A stretch of 64,000 bases of DNA from a virus (taxonomy: Duplodnaviria; Caudoviricetes): positions 32,001-96,000 of the IMG/VR virus record IMGVR_UViG_3300037851_000542; one strand, given 5' to 3'. How positions within the stretch are numbered: position 1 is the stretch's first letter; each line of letters opens with the position of its first letter. Made by a program: the position numbers and the translations under genes. Below the pieces are notes generated by a model. It was not told the origin of the DNA. It saw only the letters and a program-made list of their open reading frames with translations, and made no database searches. Shown here in pieces: positions 6,781 to 62,532 of the stretch.

Positions 6781-7380
6781 TTAACTAGGCGATACTATAA
6801 GAGGAAGGAAGCAAGTCAGATTCTTGGATTGCACCCGAATACAATTAGAAGATATGAGAAAGAGGGAATTATCAACGGGATTAGGAATTCAGCAGGACAG
6901 AGGCTGCTTGATCTCGACTCCTATCTTGGCAGATCTAAAAGAAACAGAACAATCTGTTACTGCCGAGTCTCGTCGTCGAAGTAAAAAGACGATCTTGTCA
7001 GACAAATCCTCTACATGCAAGAGCAATTCCCAAACGCAGAGATTATCTCGGATGTCGGAAGTGGGATCAACTTTAAAAGAAAGGGACTTAAAGCCATTTT
7101 GGAATCAGCAATGTGCGGAGATAAGTGCACAGTTATTGTTGCCCACAGAGATCGTCTTGCGAGATTTGGCTTCGAACTCATTGAGTTTGTCCTTGAACAA
7201 AACGGTGGGAGGATCTTGGTTCTCGACAAAAGTTTACACTCACCTCAATCCGAGCTTACCAACGATCTGCTCGCAATACTTACCGTCTTTAGCTGCAGGA
7301 TGCACTGGCTCCGTAATTACCGTACAAAAATCAAAGAAGATAAAGCTCTTTCTAACAGCGGACCAAAGAAGAAAGATTAG
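6781..7380 (+). pseudogene. tnpA: IS607 TnpA (MerR-HTH + serine recombinase) with in-frame TAA at 6982-6984 and no clear start codon
   Basis: KEASQILGLHPNTIRRYEKEG HTH; ICYCRVSSSK*KDDLVRQ; VAHRDRLARFGFELI. Confidence 0.85.
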
Positions 7381-8449
7381 ACATTGGGAAGGGGTGTCCC
7401 GACTTCTTTTTAATAAAACCGTAGCTCTTTTAAAGGATGGTACGGTTAAGTCCTCTTGGAGGTCTATAAAGACCGATCTTATTACTTCCCTACCAGACTG
7501 GTCGCATACAGCGCCCTACCAAGTTAGATCTATAGCTATACGAGATGCTTGCTTAGCAGTATCTGCAGCAAAGAAAAAATTCCTGAAAACAGGGGAGTTT
7601 CAAGAAGTAAGCTTTCGAAGAAAGCATACAGCCCTGAAAAGCATCTATATCCCTAGCTCTGCGGTAAAACCAAGTAAAGTCAGAGCTAAAAGCGCCAAAA
7701 TCTATTTCCGCCTTTTAGGTGATGTTAGATTAGCTGAAAAATTACCAGAATCGCACGGAGACTGTCGGTTAGTAATCTCGAACGGAGAATACTTTCTGAA
7801 TGTATCTTACAAAGCAACCTTCTTACCTAACTCTAGCGAAAACCAAACGAAAGTTAGGCAGAGAGTAGTTGCTTTGGATCCTGGTATTCGTTCGTTTGTT
7901 ACTTTTTTCGCTGAGAACTCTTTTGGTAAGATCGGGCAAGGAGATATTGGGAGGATAGGGAGGCTTTGCTATTACCTAGACTCTCTTTATTCTAAAATTG
8001 CCAAAGCAACGTCTAAATCAAAATATCGAATGCGGAAAGCTGCTGCTAGAATTAGAAAGAAAGTCAGAAACTTAATCGACGAACTTCATCATAAGTCCGC
8101 TGCCTTTCTAACTTCAAATTACGATTTAATCCTTCTTCCTAAATTCGAAACATCTAAAATGGTTCAAAGAAGTTACAGAAAGATTAGATCCAAAACCGCC
8201 AGAGCTATGTTGACTTTCGCGCATTATAAATTTAAGATGTTCTTAAATCATAAAGCGAACGAAAATAATGCAAAAGTCTTAGAAGTTTGCGAAGCTTACA
8301 CTTCGAAAACTAAATCTTGGTCGGGCGAAATAGTAAAAAATCTCGGCGGCAATAAGTATATAAAAGAAAAAGATCTAATTTTAGATCGAGATTTTAACGG
8401 CGCTAGAAATATCCTCGTTAAAACTTTAAGCGGGTTTAACAAAAGTTAA
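7052..8449 (+). CDS. tnpB: IS607-type TnpB RNA-guided endonuclease (frame open back to 6824; start uncertain)
   Basis: VVALDPG (RuvC-I), VCEAYTSKT, LDRDFNGARNI (RuvC-III). Confidence 0.85.
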   Translation: MSEVGSTLKERDLKPFWNQQCAEISAQLLLPTEIVLRDLASNSLSLSLNKTVGGSWFSTKVYTHLNPSLPTICSQYLPSLAAGCTGSVITVQKSKKIKLFLTADQRRKIRHWEGVSRLLFNKTVALLKDGTVKSSWRSIKTDLITSLPDWSHTAPYQVRSIAIRDACLAVSAAKKKFLKTGEFQEVSFRRKHTALKSIYIPSSAVKPSKVRAKSAKIYFRLLGDVRLAEKLPESHGDCRLVISNGEYFLNVSYKATFLPNSSENQTKVRQRVVALDPGIRSFVTFFAENSFGKIGQGDIGRIGRLCYYLDSLYSKIAKATSKSKYRMRKAAARIRKKVRNLIDELHHKSAAFLTSNYDLILLPKFETSKMVQRSYRKIRSKTARAMLTFAHYKFKMFLNHKANENNAKVLEVCEAYTSKTKSWSGEIVKNLGGNKYIKEKDLILDRDFNGARNILVKTLSGFNKS

Positions 8450-10821: not shown

Positions 10822-11907
10822 ATGAGAGATCAATTAGAAGAGGTCACTGAGAGGTACGAGCAGGTTGGGCAGATGTTGTCAGATCCGTCTACTATCCACG
10901 ACCGTGAGAAGTTTTCGAGATTGTCCCGTGAGCATAAAGACCTAAAGGAAATTGTTGCCACCTTTACTGCCTTTAAGCGGGTAGCTGAAGAGATTGAGGG
11001 AAATCAAGCGATTATTAAGGAGGGTAGTGATAATGAGTTGGCAGAAATGGCTCAGCTTGAGCTTAAGGAGCTTCAAGATAAAAGTGAAGCATTGGAGGAG
11101 CAGTTGCATGTTCTACTGCTGCCAAAAGATCCTCTTGACGAAAAAAACGTAATTTTGGAAATACGGGCAGGTACTGGTGGAAATGAGGCATCTCTGTTCG
11201 CTGGGGAATTGCTCCGCATGTATCTTCGATATGCTGAGCACCGTGGTTGGAAAAGTGAGCTGATGGACAGTAACTCATCTGAAGCTAGGGGTTTCAAGGA
11301 GGTGTCAGTGCTGTTATCCGGTGAAAAGGTCTATAGTAGGTTAAAGTTTGAGGCGGGAGTACATCGAGTACAAAGAGTGCCGGTAACCGAATCGCAGGGC
11401 AGAATCCATACTTCTACGGTAACAGTTGCAGTGATGCCGGAGGCTGAGGATATAGAAGTAGACGTTTATGATAAAGACATTCGGGTTGATGTTTATCGTG
11501 CGGGCGGACCCGGAGGGCAGTGTGTAAATACAACTGATTCAGCAGTTCGCCTTACCCATCTTCCCACGGGAATAGTTGTAGCGATGCAGGACGAAAAATC
11601 GCAACACAAGAACAAAGAGAAGGCGATGCGAGTTCTGAAGGCTCGGATCCTAGCAAAAAAAGAGGAGGAGCAGGCTGCTGAACGACGGGATGAAAGGCGG
11701 AGTCAAGTGGGGACCGGAGAACGTTCGGAGAAGATCAGGACATATAACTTTCCACAGTCAAGAGTTACTGATCATAGAATTCATTTGACGGTACACGCTT
11801 TGGATCAAGTGCTTAATGGAAGCCTTGATCTTTTGCTTGAGCCTATTATTGTGGAGTCTAGGGCTCAAAGTATTTCGCAGCAGAAGCAGGGAATTACCAA
11901 TATCTAA
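10822..11907 (+). CDS. prfA: Peptide chain release factor 1
   Basis: EIRAGTGGNEA, RVQRVPVTESQGRIHTS (PxT = RF1), GGPGGQ, SEKIRTYNFPQSRVTDHRI. Confidence 0.95.
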   Translation: MRDQLEEVTERYEQVGQMLSDPSTIHDREKFSRLSREHKDLKEIVATFTAFKRVAEEIEGNQAIIKEGSDNELAEMAQLELKELQDKSEALEEQLHVLLLPKDPLDEKNVILEIRAGTGGNEASLFAGELLRMYLRYAEHRGWKSELMDSNSSEARGFKEVSVLLSGEKVYSRLKFEAGVHRVQRVPVTESQGRIHTSTVTVAVMPEAEDIEVDVYDKDIRVDVYRAGGPGGQCVNTTDSAVRLTHLPTGIVVAMQDEKSQHKNKEKAMRVLKARILAKKEEEQAAERRDERRSQVGTGERSEKIRTYNFPQSRVTDHRIHLTVHALDQVLNGSLDLLLEPIIVESRAQSISQQKQGITNI

Positions 11908-31632: not shown

Positions 31633-32175
31633 TTAAATTAAAAATACTCTATCGGGAGCAGTCCATAATCTCTGTTCCTGTGTTAAGGTATAATCCTCAA
31701 ACTTCTCATCGCCTTTAAATAAAAATAGATACTTAAAATCCTTACTGGGGCTGTAAGTGTAAACTTTATTAGTGTCTAAATCGAGGTAATAGGCAAAACG
31801 TTTATTGCTAAACAAATACACATAATTTTCTAATCTAATTTGCCCTACTGCTAAGCGTGGATTCCTATTACTGGTATGGTTTGAATAGGGAATAGGCTGC
31901 CATTTACCTTCTTCAATGTATCTTAAAACCTGTTTAAAAGATAGTGGACCAAAGCTTGACCTTGACCCCCAATAAGAAGTATTTGAACTATAAGTGTGTA
32001 ACATTGCATAAGAAGAATTTTCGAACTTTTTACTAGTATACCAGACAAGATCTATATTACTATCGGCAAAGTAAAATGTTTTATCCTTAGCAATAAATAA
32101 CATAAAACATTCAAACAAAAGTTTTAATAATGAAATAAGCATTATAGTTATGTATGACGCTATAACGAATTTCAA
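31633..32175 (-). CDS. hypothetical membrane-anchored protein, ends RVFLI
   Basis: N-terminal TM. Confidence 0.55.
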   Translation of the reverse strand: MKFVIASYITIMLISLLKLLFECFMLFIAKDKTFYFADSNIDLVWYTSKKFENSSYAMLHTYSSNTSYWGSRSSFGPLSFKQVLRYIEEGKWQPIPYSNHTSNRNPRLAVGQIRLENYVYLFSNKRFAYYLDLDTNKVYTYSPSKDFKYLFLFKGDEKFEDYTLTQEQRLWTAPDRVFLI

Positions 32176-58909: not shown

Positions 58910-59297
58910 AAATACCCTTCTATACTATTTACTTGGTATGGAAGATAAATTGTACTTTTACAAAGCTTTTTGCTATAACTGTGTAGACGGCGACACTATA
59001 GATGTTAATATAGACCTAGGTTTTAATTTATCTAGTCAAAATACAAGAATTCGGCTTCTACACATTAATACACCAGAAAAGAATAGAAAATCAAGTAAAA
59101 AAGCAGGGTTAGAAGCAAAGGCTTTTTTAGAAGAACAAATTTTAAATAAAGAAATATATGTACACTCCACAAAGTGGGACCACTTTGGTAGAGTGTTAGC
59201 AGACGTTTGGACTTTAGAAGGTCAAAGTATAAACACCCTATTAATAGAAAAGGGTTATGCTGTTGCGTTGGACCCTAATGATAAGAAATCCAAGTAA
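58899..59297 (+). CDS. thermonuclease (SNase) family protein
   Basis: VDGDTIDV, IRLLHINTPE, FGRVLADV, INTLLIEKGYA. Confidence 0.85.
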   Translation: MISRNTLLYYLLGMEDKLYFYKAFCYNCVDGDTIDVNIDLGFNLSSQNTRIRLLHINTPEKNRKSSKKAGLEAKAFLEEQILNKEIYVHSTKWDHFGRVLADVWTLEGQSINTLLIEKGYAVALDPNDKKSK

Positions 59298-60043
59298 TCC
59301 CTAACAGTATTTCTTGAAATACCTAGCTCCTCAGAAATTTGATAAACGCTCAAACCATCTTCATCTAGGTCGTTTACAGCAATCTTTAGAAATTCAACCC
59401 TAGAAAGTCTTCTATCTGCCTTTATTTTGTTTCTTTGAGATAGATTTTGTAAGTTAGTCTTTCGTCTATGGTTACGAGCAATGCCTTTATAGAGCCAGCT
59501 GTATAGGCTAGGAGCTTGTGAACTAGATACCCATACTCTGTGTACTACGGTACCAAAATCTCGCTCCTCTGCCCCATAGGTAGCCTCTATACCGTTAGCT
59601 TTAAGCAGTTTAATTAAACTTTCGGCAAATACCTTAGAAGGTACTGTAAATCTTGGTCTGTCGCTTGGTGTTACATAACCGTGTCTCTCATAGAATCCCC
59701 TAACAAAAGAAGATTGCAGCTCTTTCTTAATTACGGGCAAAACTTTAGCACTCTCTTTAGCAAAGTACCATTTTTCTAGGGTCTCTGAAAGACCTTCAGA
59801 AGATGCTACTAGTCTAAAGCTTAAGGTCTGAGTATTAGTATTGATCTTAGGAGAAATCTTAGTATTGACCCTAAAAAGGTTTTTAATAGTGTTTAAATCT
59901 GACTTTTCTGTAGCAAGGACTTGAATCGCAAACTTATCAAATGTAGTATCTCTTCCACCCGCCCAAGCTAGATACCCTAATACGTAAGCAGTCTCTGCAT
60001 CTTTTATGTTCGATAACTTATCTAGATTAATATGCTTATTCAT
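59255..60043 (-). CDS. degenerate LAGLIDADG protein with C-terminal HTH
   Basis: AYVLGYLAWAGG and FVRGFYERHG; GLSVYQISEELGISRNTVRDYL. Confidence 0.65.
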   Translation of the reverse strand: MNKHINLDKLSNIKDAETAYVLGYLAWAGGRDTTFDKFAIQVLATEKSDLNTIKNLFRVNTKISPKINTNTQTLSFRLVASSEGLSETLEKWYFAKESAKVLPVIKKELQSSFVRGFYERHGYVTPSDRPRFTVPSKVFAESLIKLLKANGIEATYGAEERDFGTVVHRVWVSSSQAPSLYSWLYKGIARNHRRKTNLQNLSQRNKIKADRRLSRVEFLKIAVNDLDEDGLSVYQISEELGISRNTVRDYLDFLSLGSNATA

Positions 60044-60059: not shown

Positions 60060-62033
60060 TTAAATACTAGTTTGAGTCATTTTTAAAGATTCCATTTCTA
60101 AATCATAATCTACCATTTCTTTAACTAAACTGTCAAATGAAATTTTAGGTTCCCAACCTAATACTGTTTTAGCTTTAGTTGGATCTCCTATAAGTAAATC
60201 TACCTCTGCTGGTCTAAAAAAGGCAGGATCTACAACTACATACTCTTCCCAATTAAGCCCAACATGTTCAAACGCAATCTTTACAAATTCCCTAACGGAA
60301 TGGGTTTCGCCAGTGGCGACTACATAATCGTCTGCTTGTGGTTGTTGCATCATTAAATACATAGCTTCACAATTACCAATCACATTTATAGTACCAGAAT
60401 CTCTAGTAATCATGGTGCCGTTCTTTGTAGTTATACACCATGTTTCACTTACACCGTCGTTATAAACTTTACTTTCCGTAATATAATTATATCTTTTTCT
60501 AGCAGATATAACATAAACAATCCACATATTGTTTGAATTTTCCACTAACTGAGTTGTATTATATCCTGAAAGATGAGCTATAGATTGAAAATCGGCGGCA
60601 AGTTCCGATTTCTTGGAGTGGTAAGAAAGAGAACCCCATGACCCATCCCCATCCATCATTGCCTCAAAGACAATATGAGCTTGTCTTCTACTTAAAGAGT
60701 AGAAGTATTTTGGAACTCTATGTACATTTGGAGTATCAAACCAAGTTAAAATTTTTCTACTATCTTCAGCGTTAAAAATCCACTCACAAAGTCCGTCATT
60801 TCGCACCCGTTCTCTTGGAGAAAATGATAAAAGTTCTAGTGTAGAAAGTATTTTATTATAAACTTTTTTATTCTGAATTTTAGATTGTGATAGGGATACA
60901 CTTACTCCGTTTCCAGGTCTTTCAGAATTACCTGAATCCAAGCAACCTTCTGCCAATAACATGCCTATTAAATATAATTGAGGATCTATCACACCTTCTA
61001 AATCTGGCTGTTGATACCCAAAAAAATCTGGTAAAGCACAGCTATACTTAACACTATGGGATTTATTATGAACCATTTGATGAAACTCTAAAGCTGTACA
61101 AAATCTCCACTCAGAGTAATTTTTCTTGTGTCTGTAAACCTTTTTATACAGAATTCTATGGTCCGGTGTAACATTTATGTAAGAGTTTCTACCTTTTAAT
61201 AATACTTTTTCCCCATTGGTACGGTTTTCAATTTTATTGATTACAATATCTCTTTCTATGTTACCAGTATGTGTATTAAAATTAATTACCTCATCTCCTA
61301 TATTTAGGTCAGAATAAAACTTCCAACCATTGGGGGTAAGTACAGGAACATCTTTATTTATACAATAATCTTTCGCATGTCCCCAATCTCGCTGTGCATC
61401 TAAATTACCTAGTCTTAACTCTGATTGTAATCCTAATTTTATTCTAGCTACAGCATTACTTATTTTTCTTGTAACAAATTCTAGACCCCTCCTCGGACCC
61501 TCGTGGTTAAAAAGTATACCCGAAGTACAGAACATACCATAGCTTTCTCTATAATTGATCGTCATGTAGTGAGCAAACACTTTAGCTACTCCGTATGGTG
61601 ACCTGGGATGTAGAACAGTATCTTCTTTTTGTGGTACCTCATGTACTTTACCAAACATTTCAGAAGAAGAAGCTTGATAAAACTTAGCGGTAGGCTTTAC
61701 TTCTTTAAGTGCTTGTAGAAAGTTTAAACAACCTATACCTGTTATTTGGCTCGTTAATTCTGGCTGTTTCCAAGATAATCCAACAAAAGACTGCGCTGCT
61801 AAATTATAAACCTCATCTGGATCTGATACTCTTATGGCTTCCCTCAAAGAGGAAGGATCAGTAAGATCGGCTTCTAAAATAGTAACCTTATCTAGGACGT
61901 GTTTAATCCTAGAGAAGTTAGGATTAGCTGAGTGCCTTACAATACAGAAAACTTTATAGTTTTTTTCTAATAACAGTTCTATTAAATAACTACCGTCTTG
62001 TCCTGTAGCGCCACTTATTAATGCGGTTTTCAT
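60060..62033 (-). CDS. gmd: GDP-mannose 4,6-dehydratase interrupted by an intein
   Basis: ALISGATGQDGSYL, YNLAAQSFV, QASSSEMFG, SPYGVAK, LGNLDAQRDWGHAKDY|intein|CEAMYLMMQQ. Confidence 0.95.
   Translation of the reverse strand: MKTALISGATGQDGSYLIELLLEKNYKVFCIVRHSANPNFSRIKHVLDKVTILEADLTDPSSLREAIRVSDPDEVYNLAAQSFVGLSWKQPELTSQITGIGCLNFLQALKEVKPTAKFYQASSSEMFGKVHEVPQKEDTVLHPRSPYGVAKVFAHYMTINYRESYGMFCTSGILFNHEGPRRGLEFVTRKISNAVARIKLGLQSELRLGNLDAQRDWGHAKDYCINKDVPVLTPNGWKFYSDLNIGDEVINFNTHTGNIERDIVINKIENRTNGEKVLLKGRNSYINVTPDHRILYKKVYRHKKNYSEWRFCTALEFHQMVHNKSHSVKYSCALPDFFGYQQPDLEGVIDPQLYLIGMLLAEGCLDSGNSERPGNGVSVSLSQSKIQNKKVYNKILSTLELLSFSPRERVRNDGLCEWIFNAEDSRKILTWFDTPNVHRVPKYFYSLSRRQAHIVFEAMMDGDGSWGSLSYHSKKSELAADFQSIAHLSGYNTTQLVENSNNMWIVYVISARKRYNYITESKVYNDGVSETWCITTKNGTMITRDSGTINVIGNCEAMYLMMQQPQADDYVVATGETHSVREFVKIAFEHVGLNWEEYVVVDPAFFRPAEVDLLIGDPTKAKTVLGWEPKISFDSLVKEMVDYDLEMESLKMTQTSI
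60372..61364 (-). mobile_element. 331-aa intein with LAGLIDADG endonuclease
   Basis: starts CINKDVPVLTPNGWK; LIGMLLAEG and AMMDGDGS; ends WCITTKNGT..GN, then Cys+1. Confidence 0.9.
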
Positions 62034-62037
62034 ACTT

Positions 62038-62532
62038 TTAAACTCCTGTACTTCCAAAGCCTTTATCTTCTCTTTGAGTTTGATTTAACTCTTCAACTTC
62101 CTCTAGCGCAAAATCATTATTAAAGCTTCTTAAAATAATAGCTTGTGCTATTTTTTCACCTTTCTTTATAAAATAACCTGATATACCTGTACCTACTAAT
62201 CTGGAATTAGGATCTTGTTTGTAGATATCGGAAGTATTAAACTGGCTCCCATTTGTTACACGTAATGAAACTAGAATTTCACCTGTGTAACCTTGATCTA
62301 CTATACCTGCATTGGTCTCATAGAACAAGGCTTTTGATGACCTATCTTTTATCATTAACCAAAATCCTTTTGGGGGCTGTAGAGCTATACCAGTACTTAT
62401 TCTTGCTGAGTACCCGTTACAAATAAAAACAGACTCTGCTGCATAAAGATCTATACCTACATCCTCACTAGGTATAGACATTTCAACATTTTCTGGAAAG
62501 TTACTGAACTTTTTTATCTTTAAAGTATTCAC
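62038..62532 (-). CDS. dut: trimeric dUTPase
   Basis: GIDLY, ISTGIA, DRSS, GIVDQGYTGEI, GEKIAQ, R..KGFGSTG. Confidence 0.9.
   Translation of the reverse strand: MNTLKIKKFSNFPENVEMSIPSEDVGIDLYAAESVFICNGYSARISTGIALQPPKGFWLMIKDRSSKALFYETNAGIVDQGYTGEILVSLRVTNGSQFNTSDIYKQDPNSRLVGTGISGYFIKKGEKIAQAIILRSFNNDFALEEVEELNQTQREDKGFGSTGV

Follow-up and report, generated by a model that had tools for sequence, protein, structure and literature searches.

The interrupted gmd gene

The 64,000-nt stretch of DNA analyzed here (the window) covers positions 32001 to 96000 of the IMG/VR viral record IMGVR_UViG_3300037851_000542, a contig of 259,994 bp that CheckV rates as 95% complete and that stems from an uncultured phage of about 260 kb. 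On its minus strand lies gmd, the gene for GDP-mannose 4,6-dehydratase (Gmd), whose open reading frame (ORF) is composed of an N-extein, an insert of 331 amino acids, and a C-extein (Table 1). Alignment and structural modeling both indicate, with high confidence, that the insert is a genuine intein, probably competent for splicing and carrying a nested, double-motif LAGLIDADG endonuclease, in the only gmd gene of the phage.

The exteins on both sides of the insert are recognizable as Gmd. Pfam GDP_Man_Dehyd (PF16363) covers the ORF in two stretches (E 6.6e-123), and the NCBIfam gmd model TIGR01472 matches it at E 1e-121, scoring 406 bits against a cut-off of 415 because the alignment is split by the intein. 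The best PDB matches of both exteins are all Gmd, and the catalytic motifs are kept (SSE at 122-125, Y147/K151), with E125 and K151 invariant in A1, our alignment of 26 intein-bearing Gmd proteins. The phage genome contains one copy of gmd. Translation most likely starts at the ATG at 62033, 4 bases past the stop codon of an upstream dUTPase gene, while the same frame read from an alternative TTG start (60060..62057, minus strand) gives 665 instead of 657 amino acids.

Translation of the minus strand from 61364 to 60372 gives exactly 331 amino acids, in agreement with the sequence-only reading made earlier of this DNA; the intein begins CINKDVPVLTPNG and finishes TINVIGN, after which the host continues with CEAMY. 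When the two exteins were aligned with the Pseudomonas aeruginosa Gmd structure 1rpn, the N-extein reached residue 238 and the second residue of the C-extein started from 240, leaving only the +1 Cys (239) in between, and the same colinearity was seen on 2z1m (227/229) and 1n7g (261/263). A PDB search with the single intein sequence returned no matches; a profile of A2, an alignment of 13 intein-only sequences, was required, and it matched the solved inteins AceL NrdHF (6zgq, E 1.6e-5), the BIL domain 2lwy, and NrdJ-1. The AlphaFold2 model computed on A2 has a pLDDT of 89.7 and a pTM of 0.88, and its top Foldseek matches are TliVMA, PhoVMA, PI-SceI, and PI-PfuI (E 4e-14 to 5e-10, TMq 0.57-0.70, probability 1.00). 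They are followed by the free-standing LAGLIDADG enzymes I-DmoI, I-Tsp061I, and I-SceI (E 8e-6 to 2e-4), which match the middle domain, and this fold, together with two motifs that each carry the acidic residue (E139 and D240), bears out the homing endonuclease that had been claimed from the letters.

Across the alleles, the endonuclease and splicing domains have mean pairwise identities of 0.49 and 0.52, respectively, and both acidic LAGLIDADG residues are kept. A degenerate DNA pattern written on blocks F and G found one match in the window against zero expected. A domain fusion and a frame open by chance were rejected on the fold, the catalytic residues, and the colinearity, and a chance insert is ruled out by the approximately 34 distinct homologous inserts at the same site, in which C1, H69, G330, N331, and C+1 are invariant.

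Table 1. Features of the gmd locus and of other genes of the phage (window positions unless a locus is named)
Feature	Position	Strand	Description and evidence
gmd precursor ORF (N-extein, intein, C-extein)	60060..62033	-	657 aa plus stop; identical protein (P0002) in a metagenomic protein collection
N-extein	61365..62033	-	223 aa; Rossmann part of Gmd with SSE and YxxxK catalytic motifs; ends RDWGHAKDY; 2z1m E 1.2e-78; 1rpn residues 15-238
Intein (P0001)	60372..61364	-	331 aa, Cys1 to Gly330-Asn331; translation, alignment A2, profile, AlphaFold2 model, Foldseek
N-terminal HINT half, residues 1-99	61068..61364	-	block A (Cys1) and block B; profile match to AceL NrdHF over residues 6-76; beta-strand pattern in the model
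Block B core, T66-P-D-H69-R70-I71	61152..61169	-	TxxH and basic B:11; H69, R70, and I71 invariant in A2
LAGLIDADG homing-endonuclease domain, about residues 121-285	60510..61004	-	Foldseek: I-DmoI, I-Tsp061I, I-SceI; whole intein: PI-SceI, PI-PfuI
LAGLIDADG motif 1, LIGMLLAEG (132-140)	60945..60971	-	acidic E139; E139 and G140 invariant in A2
LAGLIDADG motif 2, FEAMMDGDG (233-241)	60642..60668	-	acidic D240; G241 invariant, D238 and D240 nearly so in A2
Blocks F and G	60372..60452	-	W309-C310 (F:4 Cys), N315-G316, I329-G330-N331; W309, C310, N315, G316, T317, G330, and N331 invariant in A2
C-extein	60060..60371	-	103 aa plus stop; first codon Cys+1 (60369-60371); 1rpn residues 240-331, E 5e-34
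Free-standing LAGLIDADG-like ORF	59255-60043	-	262 aa; 16 nt downstream of gmd
Class-I peptide chain release factor	10822-11907	+	PCRF E 1e-74, RF-1 E 4e-44
TnpB/Cas12f-like ORF	6824-8449	+	OrfB_IS605 plus TNB domain
Second short-chain dehydrogenase gene	L111:1018-2298 (record about 99.0-100.3 kb)	-	426 aa; PF01370 E 5.5e-18
Terminase-large-subunit-like ORF with mini-intein	L002:1-1977 (record about 195.4-197.4 kb, outside the window)	-	class 3 WCT signature DHQW, GRCIMIED, IVTHN/T

Insertion site, splicing residues, and proposed route

The intein interrupts Gmd at RDWGHAKDY/C (the slash marks the junction), and R215, D216, W217, and G218 of the RDWG motif upstream are invariant in A1. We take the Arg of this motif to bind the phosphates of the nucleotide sugar, judging from Arg231 of Escherichia coli GalE in the equivalent RDY motif of extended short-chain dehydrogenases. 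At the +1 position, intein-free Gmd proteins (n = 119) have Val in 114 cases, Met in 3, and Ile in 2, and every intein-bearing allele has Cys, so the Val-to-Cys replacement read from the sequence is real, and the spliced enzyme should therefore differ by this single change. A second insertion site in gmd, YQAS/SSEMFG, is also intein-bearing; we call it site a and that of the window site b. One 90% cluster of near-identical Gmd alleles contains P0003, with inteins at sites a and b; P0042, with an intein at site a and Val at the empty site b; and P0036, with an intein at site a and Cys at the empty site b. By its sequence, the Cys of P0036 looks like the scar of a precise intein loss, and the allele suggests that Cys at +1 is tolerated.

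The insertion site had been regarded as unusual, but it is filled in the approximately 34 distinct metagenomic Gmd sequences mentioned above, and the second gmd site is occupied too. No paper describing the RDWGHAKDY/C site was found in the literature, and NCBIfam has no model for intein-containing Gmd. A full-length intein in gmd of Thermosynechococcus strains is mentioned with its site unstated (PMC9403480); it and the site-a inteins share the host enzyme with the window copy. The accessible part of the survey by Novikova et al. (2016) lists inteins of UDP-glucose/GDP-mannose dehydrogenases and not of Gmd. The locus adds one more case to a known type of selfish element, inteins in gmd are not unprecedented, and the current understanding of inteins is left unchanged.

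Sequence alignment reveals that the catalytic residues of the Gmd inteins are strictly conserved. In A1, Cys1 (C224), the block B His (H292), the terminal Gly-Asn (G553, N554), and Cys+1 (C555) are invariant, and C1, H69, R70, C310, G330, N331, and C+1 do not vary across allelic inteins that are 30-50% identical to that of the window. A profile search of 1.84 billion representative proteins then placed them in a large clade (12,196 matches at E <= 0.001), in which the top six matches are Gmd inteins and the others lie in different, often very large hosts. Residues were counted in the 149 full-length domains that the 150 top-ranking proteins contain (Table 2). In this set, Thr or Ser stands at B:7 in 147 domains and at G:5 in 94, Trp occurs at B:12 in only 10, where M, V, or I is otherwise found, and the F:4 Cys and the penultimate Gly nearly always occur together. 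The Gly330-Asn331 ending without a penultimate His had thus been read correctly, but it is no oddity: penultimate Gly prevails in the clade and is compatible with fast splicing in characterized relatives.

Table 2. Residues at key positions in the clade of the Gmd inteins
Position	Residue	Domains (of 149)
1	Cys	149
B:10	His	149
B:11	Arg or Lys	126
F:4	Cys	139
Penultimate (G:6)	Gly	144
C-terminal	Asn	149
+1	Ser / Cys / Thr	82 / 35 / 32

Among solved structures, AceL NrdHF (6zgq; Hoffmann et al. 2020, PMC7891396), which is probably phage-derived, resembles the Gmd intein in its block B ([ST]-P-[ND]-H-R-[MI]), the F:4 Cys, the Gly kink in block F, the absence of the F:13 and penultimate His, and the Gly-Asn end. 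Its corresponding residues are S65-x-x-H68-R69-M70, Cys124 at F:4, and T144-G145-N146. Its Arg69 is close enough to the C-scissile carbonyl for a hydrogen bond, and the mutation G145H leaves it inactive (PMC7891396). Unlike the Gmd intein, it begins with Ala (Ala1) and hence takes the class 3 route, it is naturally split and has no endonuclease, and it has Thr at G:5, Ser at +1, and a ribonucleotide reductase (RNR) subunit as host. The Bethlehem phosphoesterase (RDF, gp51/gp52) intein is likewise phage-borne, with about 317 amino acids, Cys1, a LAGLIDADG endonuclease, a penultimate Gly, and a place beside an invariant enzyme motif, but it differs in its metallophosphoesterase host, in having Ser rather than Cys at +1, and in an identity of only about 23%. 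It splices completely and was assigned to class 1 by Kelley et al. (2016), and its G316H mutation slows splicing strongly and forms disulfide-bonded precursor conformers (PMC5050341). Read from AY500153, it shows CSW...VWC..NG...TGN/S, and BLASTP aligns it with the Gmd intein over the C-terminal half at E 4e-6.

The structural matches TliVMA/PhoVMA (7qsu, 7qst), PI-SceI (1vde), and PI-PfuI (1dq3) share with the Gmd intein the HINT fold and the nested two-motif LAGLIDADG domain, but they are only 9-14% identical to it and reside in V-ATPase or RNR. By the usual class 1 consensus, such inteins would have a penultimate His and an F:4 Asp. The site-b gmd alleles share with the window copy the enzyme, the insertion point, and the catalytic signature, at no more than 50% identity.

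The window intein has the features of class 1, namely Cys1, the block B TxxH (T66-P-D-H69), Asn331 followed by Cys+1, the HINT fold, and a host that is colinear on removal; the penultimate His and F:4 Asp, which commonly assist class 1 splicing and are not obligatory, are absent (Gly330, Cys310). From class 3 (WCT) it has only the Cys at F:4, where the register of Cys310 follows from the strand pattern and the distance to the C-terminal Asn rather than from a solved structure; its N-terminal nucleophile is present, B:12 is Ile71 instead of Trp, and G:5 is Ile329 instead of Thr. Membership in class 3 was rejected, as three of its four defining features fail. WCT inteins that keep Ser1 or Cys1 reportedly splice by the class 3 route, according to work by Tori and Perler in 2011. 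Because these three features fail and Cys1 is invariant throughout the clade, we consider the canonical class 1 route most likely from the residues present.

By this route, the 657-aa precursor would be inactive, because the intein lies 8 residues after the conserved Arg of the RDWG motif. Cys1 would undergo an N-S acyl shift aided by Thr66 and His69, Cys+1 would attack to give the branched intermediate, and cyclization of Asn331 followed by an S-N shift would yield a 326-aa Gmd with Cys for Val at one position. The tasks of the block F Asp/His and the penultimate His would be taken over by Gly330, Cys310 (F:4), and the basic residue at B:11 (Arg70); by analogy, Arg70 probably replaces the penultimate His, and it would probably activate the C-terminal scissile bond. 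As for the DNA, the phage lineage would have gained the element when the endonuclease cut an intein-free gmd at ..GAT TAT/GTN GAA GCN ATG.. and the break was repaired from an intein-bearing copy; the endonuclease of the window copy may or may not still be active.

Same-site alleles, probable horizontal arrival, and alternative readings

When the insert was used as a query together with a few residues on either side, about 30 metagenomic Gmd proteins turned up that carry a homologous insert at this position. The approximately 34 distinct same-site inteins come from metagenomic bacteria, DPANN and other archaea, and three other large viral contigs. With the blocks F/G pattern, site-b Gmd inteins were located in 3 of 2.9 million viral contigs (86, 200, and 388 kb) and in nine carriers among species-representative genomes: one Anaerolineae, two Patescibacteria, two Omnitrophota, a Woesearchaeota, a Micrarchaeota, a Methanosarcinales metagenome-assembled genome (MAG), and an unclassified archaeon. 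Viral contigs scanned with the intein protein alone gave nothing, none of the 292 INPHARED phage records with Gmd contains the intein, the best 80 viral Gmd loci are all uninterrupted, and no synteny was found between the window phage and the other Gmd-intein loci. The sequence-only reading had supposed that gmd is exchanged among these phages; the small number of viral carriers, the uninterrupted viral loci, the intein-free state of the nearest Gmd relatives, and the predominance of Patescibacteria, Omnitrophota, Anaerolineae, and DPANN-type MAGs among the carriers all speak against that idea. The same DNA pattern also picked up Cys1 / WC / GN inteins in metallophosphoesterases (HGHC/...GNC/HGN), some of them related to that of Bethlehem (L015, L017, L019), as well as in Snf2-type helicases and other phage-type proteins (L013, L005, L006, L008-L010).

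The closest Gmd, P0045, is intein-free and 88% identical over the exteins (N-extein 93%, C-extein 74%), and so are the next relatives P0046 (86% and 70%) and P0047 (77% and 54%). In the extein tree, the window falls in a clade of eight rows with support of 97-99, of which seven are intein-free and the window is the sole intein bearer. Because its closest Gmd relatives lack the intein, we infer that it arrived in the phage horizontally. Intein presence needs 4 to 7 changes on this tree, in which the sampling of intein-free rows is biased to relatives of the window, and the identities of inteins and exteins correlate only weakly (r = 0.31); in one discordant pair, 71% identical inteins sit in 46% identical exteins of a Patescibacteria genome and an archaeal genome. 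The sporadic distribution expected of a homing endonuclease is thus seen in the nesting on the tree, in the discordant identities, and in the empty-site alleles within one 90% cluster. The guanine-plus-cytosine (GC) content of the intein is below that of the host gene in 13 of 13 loci (L021, L014, L016, and 10 others). The gap ranges from 1 to 16 points and reaches 8 or more at 7 loci (examples are 0.39 versus 0.53, 0.37 versus 0.53, and 0.33 versus 0.48), which is consistent with a foreign, AT-rich origin.

The flanks were compared with P0045 at the protein level. In the stretch of 20 residues that follows the junction on its 3' side (EAMYLMM..PQA versus YGMWLML..DTP), identity is 55%, and it is mostly 75-100% elsewhere. 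As far as the protein alignment goes, this dip would fit either a co-conversion tract from the donor or divergence of the target site in the intein-free relatives. The DNA of a P0045-like intein-free allele was sought in the metagenome and viral scans, which yielded only relatives of at most 65% identity.

Several observations weigh against a splicing-competent intein with a working endonuclease. None of the Pfam intein models matches the insert, its Pfam LAGLIDADG_3 match (E 0.0016) is under the cut-off, and it is a prediction that the intein splices, that its endonuclease cuts, and that Gmd with the Cys is active. The window copy shares no more than 50% identity with any other and is the most divergent of its subclade, and at 15 of 33 near-invariant columns it alone departs from the rest. 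Most of these columns hold basic or aromatic residues in the range 72-110, with R152 and R252 in addition; this loss suggests that its endonuclease may be retargeted or decaying. At G:5 it has Ile329 where its relatives have Ser or Thr (in A2, Ser in 11 of 13 and Val in L011), and the invariant F:4 Cys leaves room for a class-3-like step, a minority reading. A resident but immobile intein is quite conceivable, if somewhat short of an even chance: splicing would be kept because Gmd is needed, the endonuclease would be inactive or decaying, and inheritance would be vertical only, as in a late phase of the homing cycle. The substitutions K76V, W83Y, R104S, R110A, R152N, and R252K, all at residues conserved in the other alleles, point in this direction, as does the lack of an intein relative above 50% identity in any searched collection, and the intein GC of 0.33, near that of the exteins (0.37) and the window (about 0.27-0.41), suggests long residence. 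However, the two acidic LAGLIDADG residues and the motifs around them are intact, the endonuclease domain is modeled with high confidence, intein-free relatives at 86-93% N-extein identity imply that the gain (or a loss in those relatives) is young compared with the divergence of Gmd, and the 55% identity just 3' of the junction fits a co-conversion tract. It is very improbable that the intein no longer splices and that gmd is a pseudogene left open by chance, because a 1974-nt frame is open in a region of 33-38% GC, the catalytic residues of intein and Gmd are all intact, and the exteins share 88% identity with an intein-free relative and show no disabling change; Ile at G:5 and the many private substitutions of the window copy would suit a dead gene, whereas the TIGR01472 score of 406 versus 415 bits, which might be added to them, is explained by the split alignment.

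The other alternative concerns the splicing route. Cys310 could be the true nucleophile, forming the block F branched thioester instead of Cys1 or in relay with it, or Cys1, Cys310, and Cys+1 could form a disulfide trap that makes Gmd maturation redox-dependent. The conditional control of splicing proposed in the sequence-only reading is purely speculative. We regard this alternative route as unlikely: Cys1 in all 149 clade members argues that it is needed, while class 3 inteins usually lose it, the window copy has Ile rather than Trp at B:12 and Ile at G:5, and the TxxH typical of class 1 is intact. The pairing of F:4 Cys (139 of 149) with Gly at G:6 (144 of 149), and Thr or Ser at G:5 in 94 of 149, nonetheless recall class 3, and AceL NrdHF, the best solved relative by sequence, has been proven to be of class 3; it carries an MCT triplet and Arg at B:11 and lacks His at both F:13 and G:6. 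Redox effects are also on record, since a class 3 DnaB intein is gated through its F:4 Cys (PMC6195587) and the G316H mutant of the Bethlehem RDF intein gives disulfide-bonded conformers, but Kelley et al. placed the latter intein in class 1. There is a small chance that the layout of Cys1, TxxH with a basic residue, Trp-Cys at F:3-4, and Gly-Asn, shared by a large, mostly phage-borne clade, is a natural intermediate between class 1 and AceL-type class 3, in which Cys310 would serve either as an additional nucleophile or, together with Cys1 and Cys+1, as a redox toggle. If so, the maturation of the only Gmd of the phage, and hence its supply of GDP-deoxyhexose, would hang on the thiol state of the infected cell.

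Under the preferred reading, a splicing class 1 intein, the only gmd copy of the phage would need a post-translational step before it could make GDP-4-keto-6-deoxymannose. Inteins cluster in proteins of replication, recombination, and nucleotide metabolism, and a sugar-nucleotide enzyme is a less usual host. The approximately 34 alleles form a natural series through the homing cycle, with the occupied site, the empty site with Val, a possible loss scar with Cys, double-intein alleles, and cross-domain transfers. Meanwhile, the window copy is a compact and well-modeled member of the Cys1 / F:4-Cys / Gly-Asn clade, which gave the fast AceL NrdHF and Bethlehem RDF inteins, and it may interest protein engineers.

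Neighboring genes and a second intein

A second gene of the short-chain dehydrogenase/reductase (SDR) epimerase/dehydratase family lies about 6 kb from gmd, flanked by a patatin-like phospholipase gene and a 3'-5' exonuclease gene, and it may encode a reductase or epimerase that uses the Gmd product. The free-standing ORF immediately downstream of gmd combines a LAGLIDADG-like core with a C-terminal helix-turn-helix and matches Pfam LAGLIDADG_3 (E 1.2e-3) and phrog_4645, annotated as endonuclease (E 1e-6); its first motif, LGYLAWAGG, seems to be without the acidic residue. It was considered as a relative of the endonuclease of the intein, and this was rejected (BLASTP E 0.22).

Elsewhere in the phage, a mini-intein of about 210 amino acids splits the Walker-A loop (ASRGFGK/) of a terminase-large-subunit-like ORF. 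This mini-intein is of the class 3 type, and the phage therefore holds two inteins of different mechanistic types. The window further contains a gene for a class-I peptide chain release factor and a TnpB/Cas12f-like ORF, both on the plus strand.

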